Assembly (NCBI GenBank): GCA_035712145.1
Contig: DASTBI010000096.1
Location: 16,513-80,512, forward strand
Direction: 5' to 3'
Length of the DNA: 64,000 nt
Origin: Candidatus Eiseniibacteriota bacterium
GTDB lineage: Bacteria > Eisenbacteria > RBG-16-71-46
In this document: positions 3,692 through 56,449 of the stretch, one piece after another
How positions within the stretch are numbered: the first letter of the stretch is position 1
Layout of the letters: the number at the start of each line of letters is the position of its first letter
Translations under genes and position numbers: made by a program
Notes under the pieces: generated by a model
Told to the model about the DNA's origin: nothing
Seen by the model: the letters and a program-made list of their open reading frames with translations, nothing else
Database searches by the model: none

Positions 3692-3692
3692 G

Positions 3693-5090: not shown

Positions 5091-5154
5091 GAGCCTCAAA
5101 CGAAGCGCCGGCCCCCGGAAGCGAGGCCGGCGCGTGCACCGCAACCCGCCGGGC

Positions 5155-6312: not shown

Positions 6313-6452
6313 CGAAACCTCTTCCTCCAATCGTTGCGCACCCGGAAGCGACAATCGTAGGCGTGTCCGCGATGCGCGCTGGCGACCTGTGGTTCGGGCC
6401 CCATCCCGGCGGCTTCACGCCGGCCGCCGTGGCCCTGGCTTGGCGAACTAGC

Positions 6453-8216
6453 TTACTTCGAGCCGCCGCGAGCGGCCACCGGAGAGACCGCGGCTTCGGC
6501 CTTGTGACCTCCGTCCTCCCGCAGGGCGAGCCACTGCTGCAGGGCCGTGAGCAGGTTCATCACGGTCCAGTACAGCACCAGCCCCGAGGGCAGGTGGTAG
6601 AAGAACACCAGCATCAGCACGTTCATGAAGTACATCGATGCGGCCTGGCGTGGATCCGTGGGGGTCAGCTTCTGCTGGAGAAGACCCGAAAGCATCATCA
6701 GGATCGGCAGGACTCGGAAGCTCTCGACGTAGGGGATTCCCAGAGGGAAGAGGGAATCGGGCGCCGAGAGATCGTCGACCCAGGCGACGAACGGCGCCTG
6801 ACGCAGCTCGATGGCGTTGAACAGCACGGAATAGAGCGCGATGAACAGCGGCATCTGCACCAGCATCGGAAGGCAGCCGCCGGCGGGATTGATCTTGTGC
6901 TCCTTGTAGAGCGCCATCATGGCGGCGTTCATCGCCTGCGCATCGTTCTTGTACTTCTGCCGGATGCGCTCGACCTCGGGCTGCACCTTCTGCATCTCGC
7001 GCATGCTCTTCATGCTCATCATCGACAGCGGATGGAGCAGCACGCGCACCAGCGTGGCGAGCACGATGATGGCCAGCCCGTAGTTGTGGATCACGCCGTA
7101 GAGCCAGAGCAGCATCTGCAGCAGCAGCTTGCTGAAGGGACGGATCCAGGACCATCCGAGATCCACGAGGTTCTCGAGCCCGTGGCCGAGCTTTCCCAGA
7201 GGGAAGTACTCGTTGGGGCCGAAATAGACCAGGAAACGGTCGGGTGAATCGGACTCTCCCGGCACGCTGACGATCAGCGTGTTGGTGACCAGCTCCTGCA
7301 CGGGCTTGGCCTGCGGACCGAGCCGCGCCCGCTCTTCCGCGGTCAGGTTCCGTGACTCGAGACCCGCGGTGGTGCCGCGCGCGGTGCCGCGGGTGATGGC
7401 CACCACGCCGCCGAAATAACGCGTCTGGACGGCGGCCCAGGAGGCATTGCCTTCGAAGCTCTTCGGCCCTTTGCGAAGTCCGCCCGTGCCCTCGCGGTGA
7501 AGGTTGGAGCCTACCTGGCTCGTGGCGCGGAGCGAGCGCTCCTCTTCGGCCTGATTGTGCTCGTGCGCGAGAGGCCAGGAACGGGCGGTGAGCCTGTACT
7601 CCGTCAGGTTCGATCCGCGCATCGCGACCTCGAGGCCGATCGCGTAGGTGTTCGGCTCGAGGCGATAGGTCTGGCGGATCTCCGCGCCTGACGGATCACG
7701 TCCCGTGAAGGTGAGCACGCGGATCTGCCCCGCGGCGTCGAGGCTCTCCGAGACCTGGTACGTGATCTCCGGACCACGACCGGCCGCGCCGGTTTCGAGC
7801 CGAAGCGCGGGCTCGCCCCGCAGCTGGACGCGATCCTCGTCGGGAAGGACCTCCCCTTCCTTCAACCGCCGGTGCCGCGACTCTGCGGCCGCGCCGGCGG
7901 TCGCGTAGCGCTTGAGCTCCACGCCCAGGAGACGCGCGCCGCGGGTGGAGAACCACGCGCGGTAGAGATCGTTCTCCACCGTGACCACCTGCTCGGAACG
8001 CGCCGTGGCGGTGTCGGCCGGCGAGATCGCTGGAGCCGCTGCGGGAGCGGCGCTGGGCGCCGGCGTCGTGTCGGGAACGGCGACCAGGGTGGTGTCGGTC
8101 GATTGCCTGGGCGGCGGACCCAGGTACTGTCCGAGCCCGAAGAAGCGAAGGATGAAGGGGTAGCCCAGGAACAGCACCAGGCACAGGGCGACCAGAACGA
8201 TGGTCCTACGGTCCAA
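6453..8216 (-). CDS. yidC: Membrane protein insertase YidC
   Basis: It has an N-terminal TM segment, a large periplasmic domain and a C-terminal multi-TM core (WGLAIIVLATLVRVLLHPL...CLPMLVQMPLFIALY). It sits between jag and yidD. Confidence 0.9.
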   Translation of the reverse strand: MDRRTIVLVALCLVLFLGYPFILRFFGLGQYLGPPPRQSTDTTLVAVPDTTPAPSAAPAAAPAISPADTATARSEQVVTVENDLYRAWFSTRGARLLGVELKRYATAGAAAESRHRRLKEGEVLPDEDRVQLRGEPALRLETGAAGRGPEITYQVSESLDAAGQIRVLTFTGRDPSGAEIRQTYRLEPNTYAIGLEVAMRGSNLTEYRLTARSWPLAHEHNQAEEERSLRATSQVGSNLHREGTGGLRKGPKSFEGNASWAAVQTRYFGGVVAITRGTARGTTAGLESRNLTAEERARLGPQAKPVQELVTNTLIVSVPGESDSPDRFLVYFGPNEYFPLGKLGHGLENLVDLGWSWIRPFSKLLLQMLLWLYGVIHNYGLAIIVLATLVRVLLHPLSMMSMKSMREMQKVQPEVERIRQKYKNDAQAMNAAMMALYKEHKINPAGGCLPMLVQMPLFIALYSVLFNAIELRQAPFVAWVDDLSAPDSLFPLGIPYVESFRVLPILMMLSGLLQQKLTPTDPRQAASMYFMNVLMLVFFYHLPSGLVLYWTVMNLLTALQQWLALREDGGHKAEAAVSPVAARGGSK

Positions 8217-8228
8217 GCGCGTTCCTCT

Positions 8229-8441
8229 CTATGGAACCGGGTCCACGCCGTGCCCGCCGAGCGGATGACAGCGCAGCAGGCGGCGGGCGGCGAGCCACGA
8301 TCCGCGCGCCACTCCGTGGCGAACGATCGCCTCTTCGGCGTAATGGGAGCACGAGGGCCAATACCGGCAAACGGGGCCGAGCCACGCCGAGAGCGATCGG
8401 CGATAGAGACGGATGAGCCCGATCAGCAGCTGGCGGGTCAC
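8229..8441 (-). CDS. yidD: Membrane protein insertion efficiency factor YidD
   Basis: The 70-aa product [31 protein letters not shown] matches the YidD signature. Confidence 0.85.
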
Positions 8442-8821
8442 GAGGTGAGGCTCTCCGCGGTCATCGCCCCGGCCTCGACCAGCAGGCGCTCGATGTCCTC
8501 GACCAGGTCGGCGTGAGCCGCGCGCGGCAAGCTGCGGAAGGCGACGAACATCATGCGCACGCCGAATGGCGCCACGCGGGGCCAGCGCCGGCGCACGATC
8601 TCACGCATGCGCCGCCGCGCGCGGTTCCGTTCCACCGCGCCGCCCACGCCTTTCCGGCTGGCGACGAAGGCCACCTGGGTGGGTTCGCCGGGACGCGCTT
8701 CGAAGACCACGAGGCAGTGCCGGCCACGGGCCGGCCGGCCATGGGCCTTGAGCTGCGTGAACTCGGCCTTCGACCGCAGTCGGGACTCCGAAGGGATCCG
8801 TTCGGCGGACTTCGAGATCAT
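8438..8821 (-). CDS. rnpA: Ribonuclease P protein component RnpA
   Basis: [11 protein letters not shown]...[25 protein letters not shown] is the RnpA basic motif. It overlaps the yidD start by 4 nt. Confidence 0.85.
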
Positions 8822-8944
8822 GTGGAGACCGGACCGCGCGAAGTCGGCTCGGCCGGCGGATACAGCCCAGACCATATCGGGTCTTGATCGAGTGGGCTCT
8901 GCAGGCGGCCAGCCCTCCGAGACGGAGAAGACCGCTCCGGAACC

Positions 8945-41493: not shown

Positions 41494-41530
41494 GGGCGAC
41501 CGGAGCGATCCGGTCGCCCTTCTCGTTTGT
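41494..41530. terminator. Rho-independent terminator (10-bp perfect stem)
   Basis: GGGCGACCGG agcgat CCGGTCGCCC ttctcgtttg lies between convergent genes. Confidence 0.55.
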
Positions 41531-41538
41531 GATCCGAT

Positions 41539-42099
41539 CTACTTCTTGGTCTCGGCGGTCTTGACCTTGCCGCCCAGATCCGCGGCGTTGACGAACAGCG
41601 CGTGGTAGCCCTTGGTCTCCACTTCCATGCCGTTCAGCGTGACCGTCTTCGCCAGCAGCGGGATGAACACCGACTTGAGCTCGACCTCACCGTCGCGGCG
41701 GGGATGGTGCTCCTCGGCCATCACGATGTAGAGCTTCTCGTCGGAATCGACGATGCCGATCGGCTGATTGTTCTGCAGGCACTTGGTGCCGCACGCGACG
41801 TGCGCTTCCCCGCGCTTGCCGAGCTGCAAGTAGCACGAGACGTCCACCACTTCGCCGGTGACGCGCTTGGGCTTTCCGCTCTCCAGCACTTTCTTGTTGG
41901 CCTCGGCGGTCGCGGCTTCGTACGTCGTGGCCGTCCACTTCACGCTGTCGCTATGGCCGAGCACCGGCACCGTGGCCGGCGCGGTCGCCGCGGCGGGCTG
42001 CGCCTGAGTGGGTTTCTTCACTTGAGTGGTCTGGGCCAAGGCGATGGCCGTGGCGACAGCCAGCGTGGCCACGGCCAGAAGCCCAATTCGAATACGCAT
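41539..42099 (-). CDS. Secreted hypothetical protein (186 aa) with conserved Cys pairs
   Basis: A signal peptide MRIRIGLLAVATLAVATAIALA is present. The start is taken at the internal Met of a 495-aa shadow ORF. Cysteines occur at SCYLQLG...HVACGTKC. Confidence 0.5.
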   Translation of the reverse strand: MRIRIGLLAVATLAVATAIALAQTTQVKKPTQAQPAAATAPATVPVLGHSDSVKWTATTYEAATAEANKKVLESGKPKRVTGEVVDVSCYLQLGKRGEAHVACGTKCLQNNQPIGIVDSDEKLYIVMAEEHHPRRDGEVELKSVFIPLLAKTVTLNGMEVETKGYHALFVNAADLGGKVKTAETKK

Positions 42100-42161: not shown

Positions 42162-43400
42162 TCAAGCGCCGGAGCTGGGCGGCTGGGGAAGCGGCGGCTT
42201 GCCGCGGCTCAGACGCCAGGTCAGCAGCGGCGGAGTCATGAGAGTCGTGAGGGCGACCATCACGACGACCGCCGAGTAGATCGCCTCGTTGATGACTCGC
42301 TCCCCCGCGATGGTCAGCGTGGCGCCGATGCTCGCGAAGATGAGCCCCACTTCGCCGCGTGGAATCATCCCGAGGCCGACCGCCAGTCGATCGGATCCCT
42401 TCTCGAGCACCCCGAGGGAGCAGGCTTGCTTGCCGAGGATCGCCACGAACGTCAGCACGGCCGAGAATCCGAGGATCTCGGCGCGGGCGAAGACGCTCAG
42501 GTCCACGCGCATGCCCATGAGCACGAAGAACACCGGGACCAGGAAGTTCGAGAGCGGAGGCAGCAAGACCTCCAGTCCGCGGCGTTCCGGGTCCTGCTGA
42601 AGCAGACGTTCGTAGTGTGATCTGTCCACGACCAGCCCGGCCGCGAAGGCGCCCACGATCGGCGCCAGGCCCGCCAGCGCGGCGAGATAGGAGAACCCGA
42701 AGCAGATGATCAGCGCGACCGTGAGCAGCAGCCCCTCGCCCCTCAGCTTCGCGGCGAATCGGAAGACGCGTGGCGAGAGCCACTGTCCGATCACCAGAGC
42801 GCCGGCCAGGAAGGCGGTGGCCTTGCCGAGGATCACGAGCACGGTGGTGGGAGCGAACGCCACCCCCCGGTTCACGGCCTCGATGATGCCCGCGACGACC
42901 GCGAGCACGAGCAGTCCCAGGACGTCGTCGATCACCGCGGCGCCGAGGATGATCCGGCCTTCGCGGCTGTCGGTCTGGCGGAGGTCGGCGAGGACGCGCG
43001 CCGTGATGCCGACGCTGGTGGCGCACAGGGTGGCGCCCACGAACCAGTCGGCGAGCAGGTCCTGCTCGGGAAAGAAGGCGCGGGTGACGCCGTAGCCGAG
43101 CACCATCGGGGCGATGACGCCGAGAACCGCGACCAGGGACGCAGACATGCCCACGGCGGCCATCCTGCGGATGTTGCTCTCGAGTCCGACCGCGAACAGC
43201 AGGAAGAGCACGCCGATCTGAGCCAGGATCTCGATCGCGGGCAGATCGCGAAGACGCTCGAAGCCGTGGAAGCCGAGCAGTCCGAGATTTCCGATCACGA
43301 CGCCGGCGAGCAGCTCGCCGAGGACCGCCGACTGCCCGAAGCGGGTGAACAAAGCTCCGCCGAGCTTGGCGCTCACCAGGATCACGACCAATGCCGCCAA
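42162..43400 (-). CDS. Cation:proton antiporter (CPA2/Na+/H+ exchanger family)
   Basis: GQSAVLGELLAGVVIGN and a 12-TM pattern are present. Confidence 0.8.
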   Translation of the reverse strand: MAALVVILVSAKLGGALFTRFGQSAVLGELLAGVVIGNLGLLGFHGFERLRDLPAIEILAQIGVLFLLFAVGLESNIRRMAAVGMSASLVAVLGVIAPMVLGYGVTRAFFPEQDLLADWFVGATLCATSVGITARVLADLRQTDSREGRIILGAAVIDDVLGLLVLAVVAGIIEAVNRGVAFAPTTVLVILGKATAFLAGALVIGQWLSPRVFRFAAKLRGEGLLLTVALIICFGFSYLAALAGLAPIVGAFAAGLVVDRSHYERLLQQDPERRGLEVLLPPLSNFLVPVFFVLMGMRVDLSVFARAEILGFSAVLTFVAILGKQACSLGVLEKGSDRLAVGLGMIPRGEVGLIFASIGATLTIAGERVINEAIYSAVVVMVALTTLMTPPLLTWRLSRGKPPLPQPPSSGA

Positions 43401-43434: not shown

Positions 43435-44145
43435 TCAGTCTTCCCGGTTGGGGTGGGCGCCCTTCATGCGCAGCGCAGCGTAGTCGAAGCCGGGGCTGAT
43501 GATGGCGGTGTGGCACTGGGTGCAGAGCTTCGCCGAGGGCGCGCGCTGGATGACGGTCTTCTTCATCGAGAAGGGCGCGCTCACGTGGAGGCTCCCTGGA
43601 CCGTGACAGCTCTCGCAGCCGACCGCCGCGAGGCTCGCGTTCGCCGCGCTGTCGGCGCCGGGATAGCCACCGGGGAGTCCCATGCCGGTGACGTGGCAGA
43701 CCACGCAGGCATCGGTCTTCGCGGGCGGCGCCTTGAGCTTCACCTTGAGCTTCGCCGCCATGGCGGCGACCGCGCCGGTGTCGGCGGCCGCGAGGCGGGC
43801 GAGCGCGCTCGCGTGAGCGGTGGCGGACCACGACTGGTGCTCGCGCAGGTGACACGACTGGCATCGCGCGCTGCCCACGTACTCCGCCCGCCGCGCCTCG
43901 GACTCGGCGGGGACCTTCTTCTTCGACAGGAAGGTCTTGCCGCCTTCGGTCAGCTCGGCGCCGCCCGCCGGGTGGGTGTGGCAGGTCACGCATGCGCGCT
44001 GAGTCTTGCGGGCGTGGTCGGGAAACGCCTGGAGGCGGCTCGCCAGCGCCAGCCCGAGCACGAGCACCGCGGGCGCCAGGATGAGCGCGCTCGCCCGCGT
44101 GGCGCGATGGCGCGATCGCCGTGCGGCGCGTTCCCTAGTGCCCAT
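43435..44145 (-). CDS. Pentaheme c-type cytochrome
   Basis: There are five CxxCH motifs (CVTCH, CQSCH, CVVCH, CESCH, CTQCH) and an N-terminal signal/anchor. Confidence 0.8.
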   Translation of the reverse strand: MGTRERAARRSRHRATRASALILAPAVLVLGLALASRLQAFPDHARKTQRACVTCHTHPAGGAELTEGGKTFLSKKKVPAESEARRAEYVGSARCQSCHLREHQSWSATAHASALARLAAADTGAVAAMAAKLKVKLKAPPAKTDACVVCHVTGMGLPGGYPGADSAANASLAAVGCESCHGPGSLHVSAPFSMKKTVIQRAPSAKLCTQCHTAIISPGFDYAALRMKGAHPNRED

Positions 44146-44706
44146 GCGCGACGAGGCCTCCGAAATAGCCGGCGATCGACACCATCACCGCCAGGATCAC
44201 GCCGATCACCCACGCGAATCGCCGGGTGCCGGCCTTGAGGAGAGAAAGAACCCACAGCACCTGAAGTCCGGCGATGGTGATGCCCTGCTTCTCGTGGAGC
44301 TCGACCAGCCACTCCTTCGGCTTGCCTTCGAAATGCTCCTCCGCCGCCTTCCCGGTGAAGTAGGCCGGGATGACCGAGAGCGCGGCCAGCGTCACCAGCC
44401 AGAACGCCACCGGCTCGAACTGGGGCTTCCTGCGCGCCACGATCACCATGACCGCGGCCACCAGCGTGAGCACGATGGGAAAGTGGATCACCTTGTTGTG
44501 CAGATCGTGGAGGAGGCCTTCCATGAGCGGCGGCATCCTGTAAGGACCGCGGCTCGGGCCTCCCGGAGCGCCCGGAGGGGCCTGCTGCGAGATCGTCCCC
44601 GGCGCGCCCGACATCACCGTATCGGGCTCCGTTGGGCTCTGCGCGAATGCGGTCGCCGCGGCGAGCCACAGGGACAGCGTCATGATCCCGGTCAGTTTCT
44701 TCATCC
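44135..44706 (-). CDS. Small 3-TM His-rich membrane protein (DUF2231-like), likely partner of the pentaheme cytochrome
   Basis: It has a signal peptide and three TM helices with His at LHDLHNKVIH, ELHEK and VAHGH. Its stop overlaps the cytochrome start by 11 nt. Confidence 0.6.
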
Positions 44707-45645
44707 TTCGGCCCTCAATCCCCCGCCCACGCGCTCGTGCGCGCGCTCGCTCTCGAGCGCCGGTTCGACGTGGACCACCACGTCGGTGACGCCGGGCCAG
44801 CGATCGCGCAGCCGCTTCTCCACCCGGTGGCCGCGCTCGTGGGCCGCGGCCAGCGGCGTTTCCGGGTCCAGCAGGATGTGCAGATCGAGATGGATGTCGT
44901 CCGCGGGTCCTCTCGAACGCACGTTGTGCACTTCGCGCACCCCCGGCTCCTGGATCGCCACCGATTCGACCTCCCGCGGATCGAGACGGCGCTCGTCCGA
45001 GAGCGTGGACAGCGTGTCCTTCAGAATGCGCACTCCCGCCCTCACGATCAACACCACGATCAATCCGGCCGCGACCACGTCGGCGAAATGGACCTGGAAT
45101 CGGATGGCCACGAAGCTCACGAGCACCAGCAGCGTGGCGAACACGTCGCTGCCGGTGTGGGCCGCGTCCGACGCCAACAGCTCGCTCTGCAGACGCCGCG
45201 CCTCGCGGCGCTCGTAGATCACGACCAGCGCGTTGATCACCAGCGTCAGGCCGAGCACCGCGTAGCCGATCGCGTCGATGCTGGGAAGACGAGGATGACG
45301 CAGCCGCTCGATCGCCGCGGTGACGATCTCGAAGCAGCCGAAGAACAGCATCACGGACACCGCCAGCGCGGCGAAAGTCTCGTACTTGCGGTGGCCGTAC
45401 GGATGGTTGGAGTCGGCGGGACGTCGCGCCACCGAGATGCCGATCAGTCCGATGACGTTGGACGCGGCGTCGAGCAGCGAGTGGATCCCGTCGGCGGTGA
45501 TGGCGATGGCGCCCGAGCGGTAGCCGTAGGCGAGCTTGGCGATCGCCACCACCACGTTGAGACCGAGGATGACCCACATCACCCGGGCGATCCCGGACAG
45601 TCTCTCGGCGGCTCGCGGGCTGAGCGTCATCGCGGTCATGGGCAT
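44701..45645 (-). CDS. Cation diffusion facilitator (CDF) family metal efflux transporter
   Basis: ITADGIHSLLDAASN, HPYGHRKYE, a six-TM pattern and a C-terminal cytoplasmic domain are present. Confidence 0.85.
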   Translation of the reverse strand: MPMTAMTLSPRAAERLSGIARVMWVILGLNVVVAIAKLAYGYRSGAIAITADGIHSLLDAASNVIGLIGISVARRPADSNHPYGHRKYETFAALAVSVMLFFGCFEIVTAAIERLRHPRLPSIDAIGYAVLGLTLVINALVVIYERREARRLQSELLASDAAHTGSDVFATLLVLVSFVAIRFQVHFADVVAAGLIVVLIVRAGVRILKDTLSTLSDERRLDPREVESVAIQEPGVREVHNVRSRGPADDIHLDLHILLDPETPLAAAHERGHRVEKRLRDRWPGVTDVVVHVEPALESERAHERVGGGLRAEG

Positions 45646-45764
45646 CGAGGTTGCTCCTCGGCCCGCCAGGATTGCAAGGTATCCGATGGTCGGGCCGCTG
45701 CACGCGCCGCGGTTGCGGTATGCTGCTCTCCACGCTCCTCGTAGGACGCACTGTGGAGACTGCG

Positions 45765-47053: not shown

Positions 47054-47782
47054 TCAGGGCTCGGCGGACCCCGTCTCGCCTCCCTCGGCCACGGCTTTCA
47101 GACGCGCCAGCGACGGGATCGTGAAGCTCGACTCGCGGGTGATCACGAGCTCTTCCCGGCCCCAGCGAGACAGCGTCCGGATCGCGGACTCGACCGTGGT
47201 CGAGACCAGCTCCGCCACTTCCTGGCGAGTGAGCTGGATCGGGATCTCCACCCCTTCGCCGGCCGGGCGACCCATCCGCGCAGCCAGCGTCAGGAAAAGG
47301 CGCGCGATCCGCATCTCGACTCTCTGGCCGCGCATGTCGCCGAGCTTGCGCGTGAGCGCGATCGAAAGACGCGTGAGCTCGCGCATGACGGCGCGCGCGA
47401 ACTCCGGATGCTTGTCGAGCAGATGGAAGTATTCGGTGCGCGGGATGCGGATCAACGTCACGGCTTCGATCGCAATCGCGCTCGCGGGATAGGGGATGCC
47501 GTCGTACACCGCGATCGCTCCGACCGGCTCACCCACATCGAAGATCTCGAGGATCACGTCGCCGCCGGCGCCGTGGCGCACGATCTTCACCCGCCCCTTC
47601 ACGATGAGGGTGAAAGCATCGGCCGAGTCCCCCGCGCTCCAGATCGTCTCGCCGCGGGCGTAGTCGCGCAGCGACGCGATGGCTTTCAGCCGCGCCAACT
47701 CGGCGGGTGACAGGCCGCGAAACATCGGAGTCGAGCGGAGCGCCACGCTCAGCCGCTCTTCCCGGATTTCGGATCGAGCCAA
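47054..47782 (-). CDS. Crp/Fnr family transcriptional regulator
   Basis: It has a cNMP-binding-like beta-roll and a C-terminal HTH (RQEVAELVSTTVESAIRTLSRW). It is divergent from the nos operon. Confidence 0.8.
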   Translation of the reverse strand: MARSEIREERLSVALRSTPMFRGLSPAELARLKAIASLRDYARGETIWSAGDSADAFTLIVKGRVKIVRHGAGGDVILEIFDVGEPVGAIAVYDGIPYPASAIAIEAVTLIRIPRTEYFHLLDKHPEFARAVMRELTRLSIALTRKLGDMRGQRVEMRIARLFLTLAARMGRPAGEGVEIPIQLTRQEVAELVSTTVESAIRTLSRWGREELVITRESSFTIPSLARLKAVAEGGETGSAEP

Positions 47783-47881
47783 CGTCGCACCTCACGGGTG
47801 GGTCTCGCGGTCAGGATGGCGGGCTGTCCGCGGGCGCGCAAGTCCCATGAAGCTTGCGACTTGGCGGGAATCGGCCGCGGA

Positions 47882-47897
47882 TATGACGCCGGTCATA
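47882..47897. promoter_or_regulatory. Putative Dnr/NnrR/FNR-type box, TATGAC-N4-GTCATA
   Basis: A perfect-arm palindrome lies 36 bp upstream of the hemerythrin ATG, in the crp-nos divergent intergenic region. Confidence 0.4.
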
Positions 47898-47932
47898 CCG
47901 GGAAAGCGCCGTCGCGACGATCTTCCCGGCGT

Positions 47933-48469
47933 ATGGAGAGCGCACGGTCCAGAGCTCAGAGCCCGTTCGATCGGTTCCGCCGCGATCACCTCCGAGTGCT
48001 CACTCGACTGACCGCGATCGAGGAAGCGACCGGGCGCGGCCGCCCCGTCGACGAGACGCGGCTGCGACGCCACCTCGACGGTCTCGGCCGGCAGTTCGAC
48101 ACGCACATGGCCGCCGAGGAATCGGTCTTCTATCCCGTGCTCGCGCGCACACTGCCGGCGACGGAATCTTCGCTACGCCCGTTGAACGACGAGCACACCG
48201 ACCTGCGCGAGATGCTGGCCGCCCTGCGCGTCACGCTCGGGCGCCCACGAAGCCCTGAGCGCGACGTGCAGATCGGCATCCAGGCACGCGATCTCGTGGA
48301 CCTCCTGCGCGCGCACATCCGCAAGGAGGAAGTGGTCGTCTTCGATGTCTCGGAGCGAGTGCTCCGGCCCGGGGAGCTTCGGGGTCTCCACCGCAGGCTG
48401 AAGTCCTTCCTCCCCGCACGCGCCCGCCTCGCCGAGGCCGGGCGTGAGAAAGGCAAGCACGGGTCATGA
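47933..48469 (+). CDS. Hemerythrin-like (HHE cation-binding) domain protein
   Basis: His and Glu ligand patterns occur at FRRDHLRV, THMAAEESVFYP, NDEHTDLRE and LRAHIRKEE. The stop overlaps the cytochrome c start (ATGA). Confidence 0.7.
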   Translation: MESARSRAQSPFDRFRRDHLRVLTRLTAIEEATGRGRPVDETRLRRHLDGLGRQFDTHMAAEESVFYPVLARTLPATESSLRPLNDEHTDLREMLAALRVTLGRPRSPERDVQIGIQARDLVDLLRAHIRKEEVVVFDVSERVLRPGELRGLHRRLKSFLPARARLAEAGREKGKHGS

Positions 48470-48942
48470 ACGTCCTGGTTCGAGGTCTGCTCCTCGCGGC
48501 CCTCGCAGCCGCGATGGGTTGTGGTGGATCGAAGTCCGCCGACGAGGGGAAGGATGAGGCCCGCGCCTCGACCGGCGGCTCCGGGGCTTCAGCCTCGGCG
48601 TCGAAGTTCGACCAGGGGCCCCGCGCCGGTGAATCGGCTGCGAACGAAGAGCTCGCCGAGCGGGGAGAGAAGCTCTTCCAGGAGAAGGGCTGCTCCGCCT
48701 GCCACGCCTTCGGCAAGCGCAGCGCCGGACCCGATCTCGCCGGCGTGTCGATGCGCCGCACCGCGCGATGGATGGAAAACCAGATCCTTCACCCCGACGT
48801 GATGGTGAAGGAGGACCCGATCTCGCGCGCCATGTTCGGAGAGTTCGCGCTCCAGATGCCGAACCAGGGGCTCACGCCCGAAGAAGCCAAGGCTGTCATC
48901 GAGTACTTCAAGCACCAGGACCAGGAAGCGGACGAGGACTGA
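48466..48942 (+). CDS. Monoheme class I c-type cytochrome, lipoprotein (clade-II nos 'cy-c')
   Basis: The lipobox AAMGCGG, a CSACH heme motif and a downstream Met are present. Confidence 0.8.
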   Translation: MNVLVRGLLLAALAAAMGCGGSKSADEGKDEARASTGGSGASASASKFDQGPRAGESAANEELAERGEKLFQEKGCSACHAFGKRSAGPDLAGVSMRRTARWMENQILHPDVMVKEDPISRAMFGEFALQMPNQGLTPEEAKAVIEYFKHQDQEADED

Positions 48943-48964
48943 CCGCGTAAAGGAGGCGTACGTC

Positions 48965-50866
48965 ATGAAACGCTGGATCGTCACAACTGTGACCGCACTC
49001 GTGCTGGCCGCGGTCGCCCTGTCGCTCGGCTGCGCCGGCTCCGGATCCGCGCGCAAGGGCTCCGCCGCCGAGAAGGTCTACGTGAAGCCGGGTGAGCACG
49101 ACGCGTACTACGCGTTCCTCTCCGGCGGGCATCACGGGAACATCTACGTCTACGGCTTCCCTTCGTCGCGGCACATCACGACCATTCCCGTCTTCACGCC
49201 CGAGCCCGCGGTGGGCTATGGCTACGACGAGGACAGCAAGGCCATGCTGGGCGGACGCACCTGGGGCGACGCGCACCATCCCGGCCTCTCGGAGACCGAC
49301 GGCAACTACGATGGGCGCTGGCTGTTCATCAACGACATGGTCGGGGCACGGATCGCGCGCATCGATCTCAAGGACTTCAAGACCCGCCAGATCTTCGGTC
49401 CGATCCCCAACCTGTCGGCGGCGCACGCCTGTCCCTTCCCCACGCCGAACACCGAATACGTGTTCGCGGCGTCGCGATTCTCCGTGCCGGTTCCGAATCG
49501 CGCCACGCGCATCGAGGACTACGGCAAGGACTTCAACGGCATCATCGCCGGCATCAAGGTGGCGCCTGACGACGGCACCATGTCGCTCGGCTTCGAGATC
49601 CTGACCCCGCCTTTCGACTGGGACCTGGCGGACGCAGGCAAGGGTCCGAGCCACGGCTGGGAGTTCTTCACCTGCTACAACAGCGAGCTGGCCTTCGATT
49701 CGCTGGAGGTGAAGGCGTCGCAGAACGAGATGGACTTCATCGCGGCCGTCGACTGGCGCGCCGCGCAGAAGGCGGTCGACGAGGGCAAGGCCAAGACGAT
49801 CGGCGGCGCCCCGGTGCTGCATCCGCAAGAAGTGAGGGGCATCATCTATCTGATCCCGGTGCCGAAGAGCCCGCACGGCGTGGACGTGAACCCGACCGGG
49901 GAGTACATCTGCGCGAGCGGCAAGCTGCAGGCCGAGGTCAGCGTCTTCAGCTTCGCGAAGTTCCAGGCCGCCATCCAGGCCGAGAAGTTCGACGGCGACC
50001 GCGGCGGCATCCCGGTGCTCAAGTACGAGGACGTGCTCGAGGCCAAGGTCCCGGTGGGCCTGGGCCCGCTGCACACGCAGTTCGACGACAAGGGCTTCGC
50101 CTACACTTCGCTGTTCCTCGACTCCCAGATCGCCAAGTGGAAGGTCGGCCCGCCGTGGAACGTCGACGACAAGATCGACGTCTACTACTCGATCGGGCAC
50201 CTCATGGCGTCGGAAGGCGACACCAAGAACCCGACCGGTGAATACGTCATCGCGCTCGACAAGCTCTCGAAGAGCCGCTACCTCTCGGTCGGACCCACTC
50301 ATCCCGAGGCGGCCCAGCTCATCGACATCCGCGGTCCGAAGATGGAGCTCCTGTACGACTTCCCGACCTATCTCGAGCCCCACTACGCGCAGATGATCCG
50401 CGCCGAGAAGCTCAAGCCCATCACCGTCTACCCGATCGCCGAGAACAAGAACAAGGACGCCATCAAGACCGCCGAGGAAGCTCGGATCGTGCGCAAGGGG
50501 AACCGGGTCGACGTCTACGCTCTGGCGGTGCGGACGCACTTCACGCCCGACAAGGTCAAGGTCAACCAGGGGGACGACGTCTACTTCCACGTCACCAACC
50601 TGGAGCAGGACGACGATATCGCCCACGGGTTCGCGGTGCTGTGGTCCAACGGCAACATGCAGATCGAGCCGGGTGAGACCAAGACCATGCACTGGAAGGC
50701 CGAGCAGGTGGGGATCACGCCGTTCTACTGCTCGAACTTCTGCAGCGCGCTGCATCAGGAGATGCAGGGCCTGATCGAGGTCCAGCCGCGCGGCGCGAAG
50801 GTGGCGGCGGTCCAGCGACCGGATCCGCGCCAGGTGAGCGAGATCGCGGCGCTCCTCCAGCGATAA
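48965..50866 (+). CDS. nosZ: Nitrous-oxide reductase NosZ, clade II (Sec lipoprotein signal)
   Basis: The CuA motif is FYCSNFCSALHQEM. The N-terminal beta-propeller has conserved His (DAHHPG, SAAHACPF). The lipobox LSLGCAG and an AAAGGAGG RBS are present. Confidence 0.9.
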   Translation: MKRWIVTTVTALVLAAVALSLGCAGSGSARKGSAAEKVYVKPGEHDAYYAFLSGGHHGNIYVYGFPSSRHITTIPVFTPEPAVGYGYDEDSKAMLGGRTWGDAHHPGLSETDGNYDGRWLFINDMVGARIARIDLKDFKTRQIFGPIPNLSAAHACPFPTPNTEYVFAASRFSVPVPNRATRIEDYGKDFNGIIAGIKVAPDDGTMSLGFEILTPPFDWDLADAGKGPSHGWEFFTCYNSELAFDSLEVKASQNEMDFIAAVDWRAAQKAVDEGKAKTIGGAPVLHPQEVRGIIYLIPVPKSPHGVDVNPTGEYICASGKLQAEVSVFSFAKFQAAIQAEKFDGDRGGIPVLKYEDVLEAKVPVGLGPLHTQFDDKGFAYTSLFLDSQIAKWKVGPPWNVDDKIDVYYSIGHLMASEGDTKNPTGEYVIALDKLSKSRYLSVGPTHPEAAQLIDIRGPKMELLYDFPTYLEPHYAQMIRAEKLKPITVYPIAENKNKDAIKTAEEARIVRKGNRVDVYALAVRTHFTPDKVKVNQGDDVYFHVTNLEQDDDIAHGFAVLWSNGNMQIEPGETKTMHWKAEQVGITPFYCSNFCSALHQEMQGLIEVQPRGAKVAAVQRPDPRQVSEIAALLQR

Positions 50867-50875
50867 CGGACGGCA

Positions 50876-51502
50876 ATGAACAACTTCTGGAGTGAGCCTT
50901 TCCAGGCCGGGCACCGGCGGCTGATCTTCATCGTGGCCGTGGTGCTGATCCCGGTGTTCTTCATCCCGGTGCTGCCGATCTGGACGATGAGGCTGTGGGC
51001 CCCTCAGTATCCTGAGGGGCTCCGCCTCGTCATCTTCGCGAACACGATCAAGGGCGATCTCGACAAGATCAACATCCTGAACCACTACGTCGGAATGCAC
51101 GCGATCACCGCGAACGACTTCAAGGAGTTCGGCTACATGCCGCTGGCGCTCACGTTGTTCGGGGTCATGGCGCTGATGGCGGCGATCGCGAACCGCCGTG
51201 ACGTCGCGCTGATCGGATGGGCGGCGTTCACGCTCTTCGCGGTCGTGATGTTCAAGGACTACGCCAACTGGCTCTATCACTACGGACACGACCTGGATCC
51301 CCGGGCCGCCATCAAGCTCGATACCTTCACGCCGCCGCTGATCGGCTACAAGAAGATGGCGAACTTCCGCGTTTGGAGCCTGCCCGATCTGGGAGGGATC
51401 CTGCTCGGGATCGCCTGGCTGATGGGTCCGTTGGTCGCGCTGCTGGACGTGCTCGGGCGCCGGAAGCGCCTAGCCGCGGGCCGCTCCACGGTGGCTGCCT
51501 GA
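50876..51502 (+). CDS. NosB-like polytopic membrane protein of clade-II nos clusters
   Basis: The 208-aa product has 4 to 5 TM helices and sits immediately after nosZ, before nosD. This matches the described nosB position. Confidence 0.55.
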   Translation: MNNFWSEPFQAGHRRLIFIVAVVLIPVFFIPVLPIWTMRLWAPQYPEGLRLVIFANTIKGDLDKINILNHYVGMHAITANDFKEFGYMPLALTLFGVMALMAAIANRRDVALIGWAAFTLFAVVMFKDYANWLYHYGHDLDPRAAIKLDTFTPPLIGYKKMANFRVWSLPDLGGILLGIAWLMGPLVALLDVLGRRKRLAAGRSTVAA

Positions 51503-51515
51503 GGCGGGCGAAGTC

Positions 51516-52886
51516 ATGAGCGCGGCACGTCGGGTGCTGCTGGCCCTTGGGTTGACGCCGCTCCTCGCGGCCGGCGCCGCGCAAGCGCGCGTGCTCTTGC
51601 CGCCGGAAGGCTCGATCGCGGTCGCGCTCCAGCAGGCGCGCCCGGGAGACACCCTGGTCGTGCCCAAAGGCGTCCATCGCGAGCGCATCCGCATCCAGGT
51701 CCCGCTCACGCTCCGCGGCGAGCCCGGAGCGGTGCTGGATGGCGGAAGCGAGGGCTCGGTGCTCACGGTCGAGGCCTCGGGCGCGACGATCGAGGATCTC
51801 GAGATTCGAGGCAGCGGCAACCGTGTCATCACGGTGGACAGCGGCGTGCGCGTGCTCGGAGCGTCCGGGGTCCGGCTCCGCCGCTTGATCCTCACCCAAG
51901 TGCTCTACGGCATCTCGGCCGAGCGCTCGGACCAGATCTCGATCGAGGATTGCCGGCTCGCGGGCCGCGTGCCCCCGCGTGAGGAGCGCGGCGACGGCAA
52001 CGGGCTCCACCTCTGGTACTGCCGCGACGCCGTGCTTCGCGGCAACGAGCTGTCCCGGTTCCTCGACGGCATCTACCTGTCGTTCGTGGATCGCGCGCAG
52101 GTCGAGAACAATCGGCTGAGCGACCACGGGCGGTACGGGCTCCACACGATGTACTGCCACAACACACGGCTCGTCGACAACGATTTCACTCGCAATGTCG
52201 CCGGCATCGCCATCATGTTCTCCAACGGTCTTCACGTGGAGCGCAATCGCATGGTCCGGAACCGGGGGCCTCGCACGTACGGCCTGCTGCTACGCGACTG
52301 CAACGGCGGCCGCTTCGAGGCCAACCATCTCGTCGACAACACGGTCGCGATCTTCATGGACAACTCGAATCGCAATCATGTGACCGGCAACCGGCTCTCG
52401 GACAACGGCTGGGGCGTGATCCTGTTCGCGTCGTGCGCCGGCAACGAATTCGCCGGCAACGACTTCATCGACAACGACTATCCGCTGGCGCTCGACATGC
52501 GGCGCACCGACAACCGGTTCGACGACGGGCGGCGAGGCAACTACTGGAGCGGGAGCGCTCCGTACGATCTCGACGCCGACGGCGTCAGCGATGCGCCTCA
52601 CTCGCCGGTGAGCGCATTCGCGTTCGTGTCCAAGCAATATCCTGATCTTTCGATCCTGGCTCGCAGCCCCGCGGTCGTCGCCTTGTCGGTCGCCGAGCGG
52701 GTGTTTCCGTCGCTCCAGCCGAGCGAGGCGGTGGACCGTTTTCCCAGCGTGCGCCCCACGGTGGCGAGCCCATCCGAAGCCGGAGAGCGCCGCGGCGCCC
52801 GCCGCAGCTGGACCGCGGCCTTGGCCTTCTCTCTGTTGCTCGGGATGGGGCTCGCCGGCTTCACCCGGCGCCGGGAGGTCCCGTGA
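51516..52886 (+). CDS. nosD: NosD, periplasmic right-handed beta-helix (CASH) copper-cluster assembly protein
   Basis: Repeated beta-helix rungs (NxxxxN / GIxL patterns) are present, such as NRLSDNGWGVILFASCAGNEFAGNDFIDN. A signal peptide is present. Confidence 0.85.
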   Translation: MSAARRVLLALGLTPLLAAGAAQARVLLPPEGSIAVALQQARPGDTLVVPKGVHRERIRIQVPLTLRGEPGAVLDGGSEGSVLTVEASGATIEDLEIRGSGNRVITVDSGVRVLGASGVRLRRLILTQVLYGISAERSDQISIEDCRLAGRVPPREERGDGNGLHLWYCRDAVLRGNELSRFLDGIYLSFVDRAQVENNRLSDHGRYGLHTMYCHNTRLVDNDFTRNVAGIAIMFSNGLHVERNRMVRNRGPRTYGLLLRDCNGGRFEANHLVDNTVAIFMDNSNRNHVTGNRLSDNGWGVILFASCAGNEFAGNDFIDNDYPLALDMRRTDNRFDDGRRGNYWSGSAPYDLDADGVSDAPHSPVSAFAFVSKQYPDLSILARSPAVVALSVAERVFPSLQPSEAVDRFPSVRPTVASPSEAGERRGARRSWTAALAFSLLLGMGLAGFTRRREVP

Positions 52887-53656
52887 TCCACGCCGCGGGT
52901 CTGGTCAAGCGCTACGGCGCGGTGGTCGCGGTCGACCATCTGTCATTCGACGTGAACGCGGGGGAGACGTTCGCGCTCGTCGGACCCAATGGCGCCGGGA
53001 AGACCACGACGCTCCGCCTGCTCCTCGGTCTCTCGCTTCCCGACCAGGGGACGATCACCATCGGCGCCCGGCGTCTTCCGCCCAACCACCCCGAGGCTCG
53101 CGCCGCGCTCGGTTACGTGCCGCAGAAGGTCGAGTTCCCCCGCGGCCGCACGGTGACCGAGGTGCTGCGGTTCTTCGCCCGTCTGCGCGGACTCGATGCG
53201 CGCGCGGTGGACCGAGCTCTCGAGCGGGTGGGCCTTTCCGAATTCGCGTCGCGCCGGGCGACCGAGCTCTCCGGTGGATACACGCAGCGGCTCTCGCTCG
53301 GCCAGGCGCTGCTGGCCGATCCTTCCCTGCTCGTTCTCGACGAGCCCACGGCCAGCCTCGATCCGGAAGCGACCTGGGAGTTTCGATCGCTGGTCGAGCA
53401 GCTGAGAGCCGAGGGCAAGACGATCCTCCTGTGCTCCCACCTGCTGTCCGAAGTGGAGCGCGTCGCCGACCGCGTGCTGATCCTGGTGGAAGGCCGTGAG
53501 GCCGCGCTCGAGCGGATGGACGAGCTGCGCACGCGCCAGGAAGCCGCGGCGCGGCGCGCCCTCGAAGGCCACGCCCGCAACGACGGAGCGATGTCCCTCC
53601 CCACGCTCGAGGAGGTCTTCCTCTCGGTGGTGCGCAAGGAGAGGGCCGATGCGTGA
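52883..53656 (+). CDS. nosF: NosF ABC transporter ATP-binding protein
   Basis: Walker A GPNGAGKTTT, signature LSGGYTQRLSLGQAL, and Walker B LLVLDEP are present. The GTG start overlaps the nosD stop. Confidence 0.85.
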   Translation: MIHAAGLVKRYGAVVAVDHLSFDVNAGETFALVGPNGAGKTTTLRLLLGLSLPDQGTITIGARRLPPNHPEARAALGYVPQKVEFPRGRTVTEVLRFFARLRGLDARAVDRALERVGLSEFASRRATELSGGYTQRLSLGQALLADPSLLVLDEPTASLDPEATWEFRSLVEQLRAEGKTILLCSHLLSEVERVADRVLILVEGREAALERMDELRTRQEAAARRALEGHARNDGAMSLPTLEEVFLSVVRKERADA

Positions 53657-54059
53657 CGTGGCGCGTGTCGCATGGAACGCGCTCATGCTCGCGGCGCTGG
53701 CTTCGTGCGCCGCTCGCGGGCCCAAGCCGATCGCGGTCGGCGCCGAATGCGCCGCTTGCGGCATGTCGATCGGCGATCTTCGCTTCGCCTGCGAGAGACA
53801 AGCCGGCGGCTGGTCCCAGTACGACTCGATCGAGTGCCTGCTCGACGACAAGAAGCCGGGCCCGATCTGGCTCGCCGACTACGACACGCAGACGCTCGCC
53901 CCGGCCGAGTCCTTGTGGGTGGTGAAGGGTGACTTTCCCTCACCGATGGGCGGCGGCCTCGCCGCTTTCCGCTCCCGCGCGGCCGCCGATCGAGTCGCCT
54001 CGGAGACGGGCGGCCGGGTGTCGCGACTCCCCGATGTGAAGCGGGAACCGGCGCCATGA
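53649..54059 (+). CDS. nosL: NosL copper-binding lipoprotein
   Basis: The lipobox LASCAA is present, and ECAACGMSI matches the NosL CxxCGM motif. Confidence 0.7.
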   Translation: MRDVARVAWNALMLAALASCAARGPKPIAVGAECAACGMSIGDLRFACERQAGGWSQYDSIECLLDDKKPGPIWLADYDTQTLAPAESLWVVKGDFPSPMGGGLAAFRSRAAADRVASETGGRVSRLPDVKREPAP

Positions 54060-54463
54060 AGCGCTATCTCACGCTGTTCGCCATCAGCCTGGCGATCGCG
54101 GTGGCGCTGGCGATCGTGGCCAGGAGGCCGCGGAGCCGTCCGGCCGCGCCCGTGGCGCTGGCGGTTCCCGAGGCGGCGCTCGAGCTGGCGATCGAGCACG
54201 GCGCCATGGTGCCGAGCCGCGCGGCGGTGCCCAAGGAGCACCGGGTGCGGCTCGCGGTCGAGAACCGCGACGACGAGACGGCGACGCTCTCGCTCGCCGG
54301 CTACGAGGACCGGCTCGCGCCCCGCGCGATCGCGCCGGGTGCGCGCTGGGACACCACGTTCGTCGCCGACCGGCCGGGCGAAGGCTTCGCCTGGCTCGTG
54401 GACGGCAAGCTCGCCGGCCAGTTGACGGTTTCGGGGTCTCACCTGGTGGAAGGACACCGGTAA
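54056..54463 (+). CDS. Uncharacterised 135-aa membrane-anchored periplasmic protein inside the nos operon
   Basis: It has an N-terminal TM anchor and ATGA overlaps with both nosL (upstream) and nosY (downstream). I recognised no known motif. Confidence 0.45.
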   Translation: MKRYLTLFAISLAIAVALAIVARRPRSRPAAPVALAVPEAALELAIEHGAMVPSRAAVPKEHRVRLAVENRDDETATLSLAGYEDRLAPRAIAPGARWDTTFVADRPGEGFAWLVDGKLAGQLTVSGSHLVEGHR

Positions 54464-55299
54464 TGCGTGGCGTCGACATGCGCCGCGTGCGGGTGATCGC
54501 AGGCGACGAGTTCCGGCAGGCGCTCGAGAGCCGCTGGCTGTTCGGCTTCACGGCCGTGCTCGCGGGCCTCGTGCTCGGGCTCTCCTTCTTCGGCCTGGCG
54601 CAGAGCCGCGAAGTCGGCTTCCAGGGCTTCGCGCGGGTCACGCTGAGCCTGATGAACCTGGTGCTCTTCATCGTCCCGCTCACCGGTCTCGTGCTCGGCG
54701 TCACCAGCACCTCGAGTGCTCACGGCGCGCTGTCGCTGCTGCTCGCGCAGCCGGTGAGCCGGACCGAGGTGCTGCTCGGCAAGTTCCTCGGTCTCGCGGC
54801 CGCGCTCACGGTGGCGCAGGCGGTGGGATTCGGCGCCGGCGGTCTCGTGGTCGCCTTCTACGCCGGATCCGAGCAATCGCTCGGATTCCTCGTGCTCACC
54901 GGCCTGTCCATGGCGCTCGGCTGGCTGACGGTTTCCACGGCGCTCTTCATCGCCGTGCTCTGGCCGGACCGGCTCAAGGCCATGTCCGCCGCACTGTTGC
55001 TATGGCTCCTCATGGTGGTGGCGTACGACCTCGTCGTGCTCGGGGCCACGACGCTGCTCCAGGGCGTGCCGCTCCAGAGCGTGCTGTTTCCGGCTCTGCT
55101 GCTCAATCCCGTCGACCTGGCCCGGGTGCTCACCATGCTGGCGATCGGATCGGGAGCCCTGTTCGGGCCGACCTCGGCGGTTCTCATGAAGAGCTTCGGC
55201 AGCACGGGCGGCATTGCGCTCGGGCTGCTGGTGCTCACGCTCGAGAGCGTGATCCCGCTCGTGATCGCGGCTCAGGTGTTCCGAAGAAGGGATGGGTAG
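54463..55299 (+). CDS. nosY: NosY ABC-2 type permease
   Basis: It has six TM segments and follows nosF/nosL. Its stop overlaps the nnrS start. Confidence 0.75.
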   Translation: MRGVDMRRVRVIAGDEFRQALESRWLFGFTAVLAGLVLGLSFFGLAQSREVGFQGFARVTLSLMNLVLFIVPLTGLVLGVTSTSSAHGALSLLLAQPVSRTEVLLGKFLGLAAALTVAQAVGFGAGGLVVAFYAGSEQSLGFLVLTGLSMALGWLTVSTALFIAVLWPDRLKAMSAALLLWLLMVVAYDLVVLGATTLLQGVPLQSVLFPALLLNPVDLARVLTMLAIGSGALFGPTSAVLMKSFGSTGGIALGLLVLTLESVIPLVIAAQVFRRRDG

Positions 55300-56449
55300 A
55301 GCGCCTCAGCCGTACCAGGTCCTCTTTCCGATCGGAGTCGTGTTCGCTCTGATCGGCCTCGGCGCATGGCCCGCGCACGTCTTCGGGCTCTTGCCTTATC
55401 CGGGCGCGCTGCACCGGAGCCTGATGATCCAGGGCTTCGAGACCAGCTTCATCCTCGGCTTCCTCCTCACCGCGATGCCGGCCTTCACGCACGGGCCCCG
55501 CTGCCATCCGCTCGAGCTGGCATGGGGCGTGTTCTCGATGGTGGGCTTCGGCGTCGCCGCCTTCTTCGCCGACGAGACCGCGGCGCAAGAGTTCTTCCTC
55601 TTCGCTCTCACGCTGCCACTCTTCGCCGGTGGCCGGCGCGTCCTCGGGAATCCGCAGAAGCCGCCGGAAGAGTTCGCCTTCGTCGCGTTCGGACTGGCGC
55701 TCGGGCTCCTGGGCGGCGCGCTGCGGCTCGCCGAGTCGCTGGGCGTCGTGTTTTCGCTGCCGGCGCGCTTGCCGGAGCGCCTGCTCTCGCTCGGCATGGT
55801 CCTGTCTCTGGTGGTGGGCGTGGGAAGCCTCCTCGTCCCCACCTTTGCGGGAATGCGCGATCCACTGGTGATTCCCGGTGTGGCGAAGGCCCACGAGCGC
55901 GCCGGGCGCCGTGCGTTGTACGCGGTGATGATGGCGGTGCTCGCGCTGGCCTTCGTCCTGGAGAGCGCCCATCGGCCGACCCTCGGCATGGCCATGCGGG
56001 CCACGGCAGTCACCGTGATGGTGACCTGGGTGTGGAAGCTCTACCGGCTGCCGCGACGGGATGCCGCCGGATTCGTGCTTTGGGGCGCGGGGTGGTTCCT
56101 GCCGCTGGGGCTCCTGGGCGCGACGCTCGATCCGCTGCACGCCGTCGCCCTGCTCCACTTCACCTACATGGGAGGCTTCGCGCTGCTCACGATCGGGATC
56201 GGGACACGCGTCATCGTCTCGCACGGAGGACACGCGCTCGAGCTCGAGCGCCGCGTGCTCGATGTGCGGTGGCTGAGTCTGTTCCTCATCGCGCTGGCGC
56301 TTCGCGTCATCGCCGATTTCGCCACGGCGCACGTGGCCAGGGCATGGGCCGCGAGCGCGGTGCTGCTGATCGCCGCCTGCGGATGGTGGGCCTGGAGAGT
56401 CCTCTCGCTGCGATCGCAGCGACGCGAGGTCGGGCCGAAGACGGTCTAG
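55292..56449 (+). CDS. nnrS: NnrS family heme-copper membrane protein (NO-stress associated)
   Basis: The ~385-aa product has 12 TM segments with conserved His (HRSLMIQGFETSFILGFL, HGP..H) and sits in the denitrification context. Confidence 0.65.
   Translation: MGRAPQPYQVLFPIGVVFALIGLGAWPAHVFGLLPYPGALHRSLMIQGFETSFILGFLLTAMPAFTHGPRCHPLELAWGVFSMVGFGVAAFFADETAAQEFFLFALTLPLFAGGRRVLGNPQKPPEEFAFVAFGLALGLLGGALRLAESLGVVFSLPARLPERLLSLGMVLSLVVGVGSLLVPTFAGMRDPLVIPGVAKAHERAGRRALYAVMMAVLALAFVLESAHRPTLGMAMRATAVTVMVTWVWKLYRLPRRDAAGFVLWGAGWFLPLGLLGATLDPLHAVALLHFTYMGGFALLTIGIGTRVIVSHGGHALELERRVLDVRWLSLFLIALALRVIADFATAHVARAWAASAVLLIAACGWWAWRVLSLRSQRREVGPKTV

Follow-up and report, generated by a model that had tools for sequence, protein, structure and literature searches.

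A DUF2231 membrane protein and a pentaheme c-type cytochrome as candidate accessories of a CDF metal exporter in Candidatus Eiseniibacteriota

Two overlapping minus-strand genes in a 64,000-nucleotide stretch of a Candidatus Eiseniibacteriota genome (contig DASTBI010000096.1; the whole stretch is called the window here) encode a small membrane protein of the DUF2231 family and a pentaheme c-type cytochrome, and this pair is probably the middle of a metal-efflux operon. The DUF2231 protein would be an exporter accessory with a periplasm-facing histidine site, while the cytochrome, which is of the c554 type, would serve as its optional redox partner. The initial annotation had favoured another role, namely that the pair links the quinone pool to NosZ of the neighbouring nos cluster, and had mentioned metal handling together with the adjacent CDF exporter as an alternative. 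It is this alternative that the comparative gene-neighbourhood evidence supports.

The pair belongs to a minus-strand operon of five genes, which runs from a CDF exporter through the DUF2231 gene, the cytochrome gene and a cation/proton antiporter gene to a gene for a secreted Cys/His protein. These genes and their flanking elements are as follows (aa, amino acids):

44701..45645, minus strand: CDF metal exporter, 314 aa, operon gene 1 (Pfam Cation_efflux, ZT_dimer)
44135..44704, minus strand: DUF2231 membrane protein, 189 aa, operon gene 2 (PF09990, AlphaFold2 model)
43435..44145, minus strand: pentaheme c-type cytochrome of the c554 family, 236 aa, operon gene 3 (PF13435, five CxxCH motifs)
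42162..43400, minus strand: CPA-type monovalent cation/proton antiporter (Na_H_Exchanger), 412 aa, operon gene 4 (PF00999, E 2e-56)
41539..42099, minus strand: conserved secreted protein with Cys/His motifs, 186 aa, operon gene 5, the last (orthologs in relatives)
41494..41519, no strand assigned: putative operon terminator, a G+C-rich hairpin with an 11-bp stem between convergent gene ends (consensus scan)
45646..45764, no strand assigned: likely promoter region, the intergenic stretch from which the CDF gene and a lipoprotein gene diverge (start-codon analysis, alignment)

Read directly from the sequence, the CDF stop and the DUF2231 start share four nucleotides (ATGA, 44701-44704), and the overlap between the DUF2231 stop and the cytochrome start is exactly the 11 nucleotides given by the initial annotation (44135-44145). 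A further 34 nucleotides separate the cytochrome stop from the antiporter start. Because the DUF2231 start overlaps the CDF stop, the DUF2231-cytochrome pair forms the middle of a longer operon rather than a unit of its own, and the gene overlaps suggest that its members are co-transcribed. The membrane protein had been described as 190 aa long with its gene ending at 44706; the sequence instead gives an ATG at 44704, a stop codon at 44135-44137 on the minus strand and 189 aa.

The first gene of the operon is a typical CDF exporter, with a transmembrane domain and a cytoplasmic dimerisation domain (Pfam Cation_efflux, PF01545, E 4.6e-45; ZT_dimer, PF16916, E 4.7e-18). Among solved structures, E. 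coli FieF/YiiP is the nearest to it (E 1.4e-29), and alignment with YiiP places the site-A residues on transmembrane helices TM2 and TM5, where the exporter has H-x3-D on TM2 (D-x3-D in YiiP) and H-x3-D on TM5. In each of the 11 close metagenome loci from related Eisenbacteria, DUF2231 immediately follows this gene, at 75-82% identity for the CDF protein and 60-82% for DUF2231. The cytochrome gene is present in loci L006-L011 and absent from L001/L002 and L003/L004; in L003/L004 the order is CDF, DUF2231, antiporter, and these loci are otherwise syntenic with the window. In the related Eisenbacteria contigs, CDF and DUF2231 therefore always occur as a pair, to which the cytochrome is an optional addition. 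The DUF2231 protein of L009, which has the cytochrome, is more distant from that of the window (60% identity) than the one of L003, which lacks it (68%), and the cytochromes linked to CDF and DUF2231 fall in one clade with 57-80% identity. This pattern makes loss of the cytochrome in some lineages likelier than its repeated gain. In a separate observation on L001/L002 (2969-6260; 18305-20455), where CDF and DUF2231 occur without the operon cytochrome, the region 4 kb upstream encodes an MtrB/PioB-type porin and multiheme proteins, and a CbcL-like gene is found 8 kb downstream; the organisms in question seem to be equipped for metal respiration or metal oxidation.

The link between DUF2231 and metal efflux extends well beyond this phylum. 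With one genome scanned per species, 76 loci of the DUF2231 subfamily were found, chiefly in Ignavibacteria/Melioribacter, Kapaibacteria, Kryptonia, Zixibacteria, Acidobacteriota and Eisenbacteria, and 75 of them were analysed. All open reading frames within 5 kb of DUF2231 were clustered, and representatives were annotated. Within this distance, RND pumps were present in 29 of the 75 loci, as were small HMBD proteins (29/75), followed by CusB-type adaptors with HMBD (28/75), outer-membrane efflux proteins (19/75), HMBD-bearing P1B ATPases (17/75), multicopper oxidases (9/75) and FtrD-like proteins (9/75). At least one metal-efflux or oxidase gene was found in 51 loci, and in 19 a metal gene was the immediate same-strand neighbour of DUF2231. 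Co-location with metal exporters is conserved across lineages, which is the pattern of a metal-resistance accessory. In the same 75 loci, no immediate neighbour of DUF2231 carries a CxxCH motif, and no homolog of the cytochrome was found.

Several further features of these loci deserve mention. In Ignavibacteria/Melioribacter, some of them encode secreted proteins that are extremely rich in Met and His (L028:4409-4909; L061:5378-5968; L055:878-1687), e.g. QHDQHHGNNGDNMMQNQQTQNMRHMQNMQNMM, and a 269-aa outer-membrane-barrel-like family without a Pfam match occurs in 18 loci, usually directly upstream of DUF2231. Such Met/His-rich secreted proteins and barrel-like neighbours point to a resistance setting of the Cu(I)/Ag(I) type. 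In Melioribacteraceae (L058, L069, L077 and L081), genes for CcmF-like proteins of ~790-800 aa (Cytochrom_C_asm and CcmF_C domains) flank DUF2231 together with MacB-type ABC genes.

The DUF2231 protein itself matches Pfam PF09990 with E 3e-8 and 34.3 bits (cut-off 26.4), and it carries the motifs of the family, HNKVIHFP (H-x4-H-x-P) in the first transmembrane helix and GGLVAHGH (GG-x-L/V...H) at the C-terminus, both kept throughout a set of 249 homologs that spans two subfamilies. Its AlphaFold2 model (pLDDT 76) consists of an N-terminal signal helix, a disordered low-complexity linker and four transmembrane helices (68-92, 94-124, 131-156 and 158-187), in place of the three helices proposed before. 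The conserved histidines that the initial annotation placed in LHDLHNKVIH and VAHGH are only partly borne out. Both motifs are present, and close homologs invariably have H69, H74 and H187; H66 and H189, however, are not conserved, and the equally invariant H137 had not been listed. Among the 249 homologs, H69 and H137 are each conserved in 248 and H74 in 246, while P76, G118, G182 and G183 are essentially invariant. H187 is kept in 184 of 206 members of the window's own subfamily and is shifted by two residues in the other.

The placement of these residues is informative. When the Arg/Lys-rich loops 91-93 and 157-162 are assumed to be cytoplasmic, all conserved histidines in the model lie at the periplasmic ends of the helices, and E135, E138 and N70 are likewise found on the periplasmic face. 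This arrangement of three universal histidines and one further histidine together with the Glu and Asn residues, all on one face, would be more in keeping with a metal site than with a di-heme conduit across the membrane, although the protein may hold a single heme on the periplasmic side. A Foldseek search of the model against the PDB returned no significant match, to a b cytochrome or otherwise; the best matches were CcmF (E 0.15) and, further down, STEAP2 (E 0.68). The family is large, since the profile of the window's subfamily matches 1,432 representative clusters at E <= 0.001, and it appears to stand alone: the best 150 of these 1,432 matches and 43 matches of the second subfamily consist without exception of unfused proteins (79-276 aa). 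DUF2231 is effectively uncharacterised in the literature, as a full-text search for the family names found no more than one passing mention in each of two papers.

The cytochrome gene (43435-44145, minus strand) confirms the 236-aa protein with five CxxCH motifs (CVTCH, CQSCH, CVVCH, CESCH and CTQCH) reported in the initial annotation, and the product has the same sequence as the GenBank protein 'multiheme c-type cytochrome' from a Ca. Eisenbacteria metagenome-assembled genome. It belongs to the family Cytochrome_C554 (PF13435; E 3.6e-19; 69.9 bits, cut-off 20.8), the match spanning profile positions 2-84 of 84. A profile built from 40 of its homologs finds cytochrome c554 of N. europaea in the PDB (1bvb/1ft5; E 3.1e-24, chain residues 3-96), next to the OcwA-like structure 6I5B (E 3e-23) and, weakly, NrfB (E 6e-5). 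All five CxxCH motifs are conserved in the homologs, the first being absent only in two four-heme relatives. The N-terminal hydrophobic helix, a signal peptide or an anchor, appears to end at a cleavable-looking site between LQA and FP. Foldseek found no match below E 7 for the AlphaFold2 model of the cytochrome in the PDB. A candidate identity as a quinol dehydrogenase of the NapC/NirT/NrfH type was rejected (PF03264, 16.9 bits, below the cut-off of 24.1), and neither the cytochrome nor DUF2231 contains NrfD-like, 4Fe-4S or FMN-binding domains according to Pfam and NCBIfam.

The best-known relative, cytochrome c554 of N. europaea (CycA; 1BVB/1FT5), is likewise a soluble periplasmic multiheme c-type cytochrome, and it shares the motifs 'GxxKCxxCH' and 'CESCHGPG'. 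The window cytochrome differs from it in having five hemes instead of four, with an extra N-terminal CxxCH module, and it falls outside the CycA equivalog (NCBIfam NF043010; 68.4 bits against a cut-off of 400). It also lacks the hydroxylamine oxidoreductase context, being encoded in a metal-exporter operon; no hao genes were found in the window.

Taken as an operon for metal efflux, these components suggest a possible division of labour. The DUF2231 protein would be a small inner-membrane four-helix protein in which H69, H74, H137 and H187, with nearby Glu and Asn residues, form a periplasmic metal site that could receive or pass on the cation released by the CDF exporter. The cytochrome might then provide an electronic connection between the periplasmic electron pool and either this site or the exported metal. 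Such coupling could alter the redox state of the metal, as multicopper oxidases do in aerobic copper resistance.

Several points weigh against this interpretation. Metal binding by DUF2231 is deduced from its gene neighbourhood and from the placement of its residues, and Foldseek gave no significant structural relative for either protein. A CDF transport site of the HD-HD type usually means Zn2+, which is redox-inert, and the role of the cytochrome would then be unexplained; either the exporter also accepts other metals (Co, Cu or Fe), or the cytochrome has another function towards DUF2231. In addition, 24 of the 75 genome loci have no metal gene within 5 kb of DUF2231, members of its second subfamily (P0316, P0328) stand in uninformative contexts, and the closest relatives of the cytochrome outside the operon are found in clusters of respiratory character that resemble those for extracellular electron transfer.

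This last point leads to a different explanation: the cytochrome would be a general electron carrier in the periplasm, as part of an extracellular-electron-transfer or respiratory chain, its gene would have ended up in the CDF operon by chance, and it would not work together with DUF2231. Its homologs with ~50% identity (P0070, P0074, P0075 and P0121) are encoded between a CbcL-like gene and a gene for a multiheme cytochrome of ~900 aa, adjoining Rieske/cytochrome b genes and without DUF2231. The CbcL-like gene in these clusters joins a multiheme domain to Ni_hydr_CYTB, which is the architecture of CbcL in Geobacter (PMC6295460). The base setting of the cytochrome family therefore appears to be periplasmic electron transfer. 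The ability of the CDF-DUF2231 pair to do without the cytochrome is also consistent with chance placement, as is the related contig with MtrB/PioB-type and CbcL-like genes nearby. The likeness to the CbcL-type quinol oxidase clusters of Geobacter (PMC6295460) stops, however, at these homologs, because the window has neither Ni_hydr_CYTB nor a CbcL-like gene, and the DUF2231 partner is unlike di-heme b cytochromes.

Against mere chance, the operon cytochromes form a clade separate from these homologs, and the identity range within it implies that the association is old and has been maintained. The start-stop overlap with DUF2231 suggests coupled translation. Moreover, a second, independent association of a cytochrome, DUF2231 and metal efflux is found in the lineage of L090-L092 (L090:7394-15440). 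There, a four-heme homolog (P0129, 53% identity, a protein found on 22 contigs) is encoded divergently to a classical DUF2231 protein of 161 aa, and the cytochrome gene is followed by a 137-aa open reading frame and then by genes for a Cus-type pump (OEP, CusB(HMBD) and an RND protein of 1109 aa) and a cupredoxin. It is unlikely that the cytochrome is a general shuttle without a functional tie to DUF2231. A metagenome scan with the cytochrome profile returned mostly distant c554-family proteins (26-45% identity), none of them with DUF2231 as judged by the subfamily HMM or phmmer. Independently of this question, the cluster conserved in L012:3507-13517, L174, L176 and L178, which comprises Rieske, cytochrome b, multiheme c, a divergent CbcL-like gene (708-745 aa), a pentaheme c554-like cytochrome and a multiheme cytochrome of 876-937 aa, looks like an uncharacterised extracellular-electron-transfer module.

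The role in N2O respiration proposed by the initial annotation would make DUF2231 a heme-b or quinol anchor that forms, with the pentaheme cytochrome, a quinol:cytochrome c oxidoreductase. This complex would feed the monoheme cytochrome and the clade II NosZ in place of NosGH/NosR. The nos cluster in question is a 9.4-kb block, placed tail-to-tail between the methyltransferase and LVIVD genes:

47054..56449: nos island with a Crp/Fnr regulator, a hemerythrin-domain protein (47798-48469), monoheme cytochrome c, nosZ, NosB, nosD, nosF, a NosL-like open reading frame, cupredoxin, nosY and NnrS

Some features speak for this proposal. The cytochrome and DUF2231 genes overlap, the cytochrome is periplasmic, DUF2231 has conserved histidines in or near its transmembrane helices, and its model bears a likeness, weak and not significant, to the heme-handling proteins CcmF and STEAP2. 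The nos cluster lies only 2.9 kb away, and, as had been noted, neither nosGH nor nosR is found among the annotations of the window. The absence of nosR is nevertheless normal for clade II clusters (PMC9697520), and the island contains its own cytochrome c as well as its own NosB, encoded at 50876-51502 with the motifs LNHYVGM and YGHD, which correspond to the published LNHYxGM and YGHx (PMC9697520). NosB is described as a small polytopic membrane protein with histidines and a proposed role in electron transfer or copper handling (PMC9697520). DUF2231 resembles it in size, polytopic topology and the presence of His, whereas it differs from NosB, NosGH and NosR in belonging to another family that is unlinked to nos in relatives.

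Gene order in the relatives speaks against the proposal. Locus L006 is collinear with the window through ribonucleotide reductase, PhoX, two PD40/Tricorn-like genes, the LVIVD/CarboxypepD_reg protein, the methyltransferase, the lipoprotein, CDF, DUF2231 and the cytochrome, but the gap between the LVIVD and methyltransferase genes, which holds the 9.4-kb island in the window, is only 13 bp there. The island is also absent from L003, L007 and L009, in agreement with L006, and L006, L007 and L009 carry the CDF-DUF2231-cytochrome cassette without nos genes. Since the LVIVD and methyltransferase genes abut in the collinear relatives, the nos block reads as an inserted island that is unrelated to the metal-exporter operon. 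When the window's NosZ and NosD served as tblastn queries, none of the 178 fetched loci gave a homolog. An absence of linkage to nosZ across related genomes was the very outcome that the initial annotation had named as speaking against its proposal.

The local arrangement agrees with this. The pair is encoded on the strand opposite to nos, with two divergent genes and the regulator in between, and no FNR/Crp box (TTGA-N6-TCAA) that the operon and nos promoters might share occurs anywhere in the window. All conserved histidines of DUF2231 are found on one membrane face, and its 75 genome loci lack both CxxCH neighbours and cytochrome homologs. The pair accordingly does not belong to the accessory electron-transfer modules of nos clusters (NosGH, NosC1/C2, NosR). 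As no conserved linkage to nos exists, the proposed supply of electrons to NosZ is largely refuted, and only a very small probability can still be given to it. Within the island, the gene calls past nosF are ambiguous (52883-54463): the open reading frame that matches NosL (53496-54059, E 1e-8, C-terminal part only) overlaps both the end of nosF and a 90-aa open reading frame (53653-53925).

It is also highly improbable that DUF2231 is a helper in heme handling or cytochrome maturation with the cytochrome as its client, a role suggested by a CcmF/CcsBA-like pattern of His positions (two at the membrane interface and two in periplasmic extensions), by CcmF as the top Foldseek match and by CcmF-like genes that lie within 5 kb of DUF2231 in 6 of 75 loci, four times as its immediate neighbour, because DUF2231 has no WWD domain, the structural similarity to CcmF is at chance level, most DUF2231 loci have no cytochrome c nearby and metal-efflux genes dominate the neighbourhood.

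The reading as a metal-efflux operon also finds parallels among known systems. In copper resistance, periplasmic redox proteins are represented by the multicopper oxidases CueO and PcoA and by CopI, CopJ and CopG of Cupriavidus. Like the window cytochrome, these are periplasmic redox proteins encoded with metal exporters, and a multicopper oxidase occupies a comparable place in the nine DUF2231 loci that contain one. Unlike them, the window cytochrome carries c-type hemes instead of copper and shows no homology, and its redox action on a metal is conjectural. Pairing of a CDF exporter with a redox protein is also found in CzcD-CzcO of Bacillus subtilis, where the accessory oxidoreductase CzcO is a cytoplasmic flavoprotein, and in magnetosomes, where the CDF proteins MamB and MamM go together with magnetochrome cytochromes, whose c-type hemes act on the transported metal. 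The genetic pairing is the same as in the window operon, but the accessory proteins are unrelated, magnetochromes have a different heme fold, and DUF2231 is not part of these systems. A literature search found no description of an operon of CDF, DUF2231 and a multiheme cytochrome.

The remaining parts of the operon are conserved as well. The antiporter keeps its position in L003, L004 and L007 at 77-79% identity. The last gene, which starts with an ATG preceded by AAGGAG, encodes the 186-aa secreted protein (41539-42099) that has no match in Pfam or NCBIfam; its orthologs hold the same position in L003, L004, L007 and L019 (74-84% identity), with the motifs VSCYL...HVACGTKCL and EEHHP conserved, and it may be a further periplasmic metal-binding component. 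The hairpin that lies 3' of this gene is likely the operon terminator, a match to a consensus scan being in itself no evidence of function. Upstream of the operon, the genes for a lipoprotein and a methyltransferase are encoded divergently on the plus strand. In an alignment of the window with L002, L003 and L006, an element 'CTTGCA(A/T)TC' is conserved ~30 nt upstream of the CDF start in all four lineages, and GCAACCTCG is conserved immediately ahead of the start codon. The TTGCAAT element may be a -35 element or an operator; apart from this promoter-like element, no recognisable metal-regulator box is present in the aligned upstream regions. The window has a G+C content of 68%, and the origin-proximal housekeeping genes mnmG/gidA, mnmE/trmE, yidC and rnpA at 1952-8944 indicate that it is chromosomal and probably near oriC.

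A broader possibility, speculative and held with low confidence, is that DUF2231 proteins are an unrecognised class of periplasm-facing metal-site proteins that dock onto CDF exporters, Cus-type RND pumps and P1B ATPases. In some anaerobe-leaning lineages, DUF2231 and a c554-type cytochrome could then constitute an oxygen-independent periplasmic metal oxidoreductase, acting for example on Cu(I)/Cu(II) or Fe(II)/Fe(III). If this is true, the pair would be an anaerobic counterpart of CueO/PcoA that is wired into the respiratory electron pool.

All component families of the operon are known, and the remaining lead is a functional hint, based on gene neighbourhood, for a domain of the DUF type. 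The nos hypothesis would have suggested a missing electron route for clade II N2O reduction, a lead which the self-contained nos island removes. What emerges instead is that DUF2231, a widespread family, is tied consistently to metal efflux by its gene neighbourhood. Should the cytochrome act on the exported metal, the operon would illustrate a way for anaerobes to deal with redox-active metals in the periplasm that does not need oxygen-dependent multicopper oxidases.

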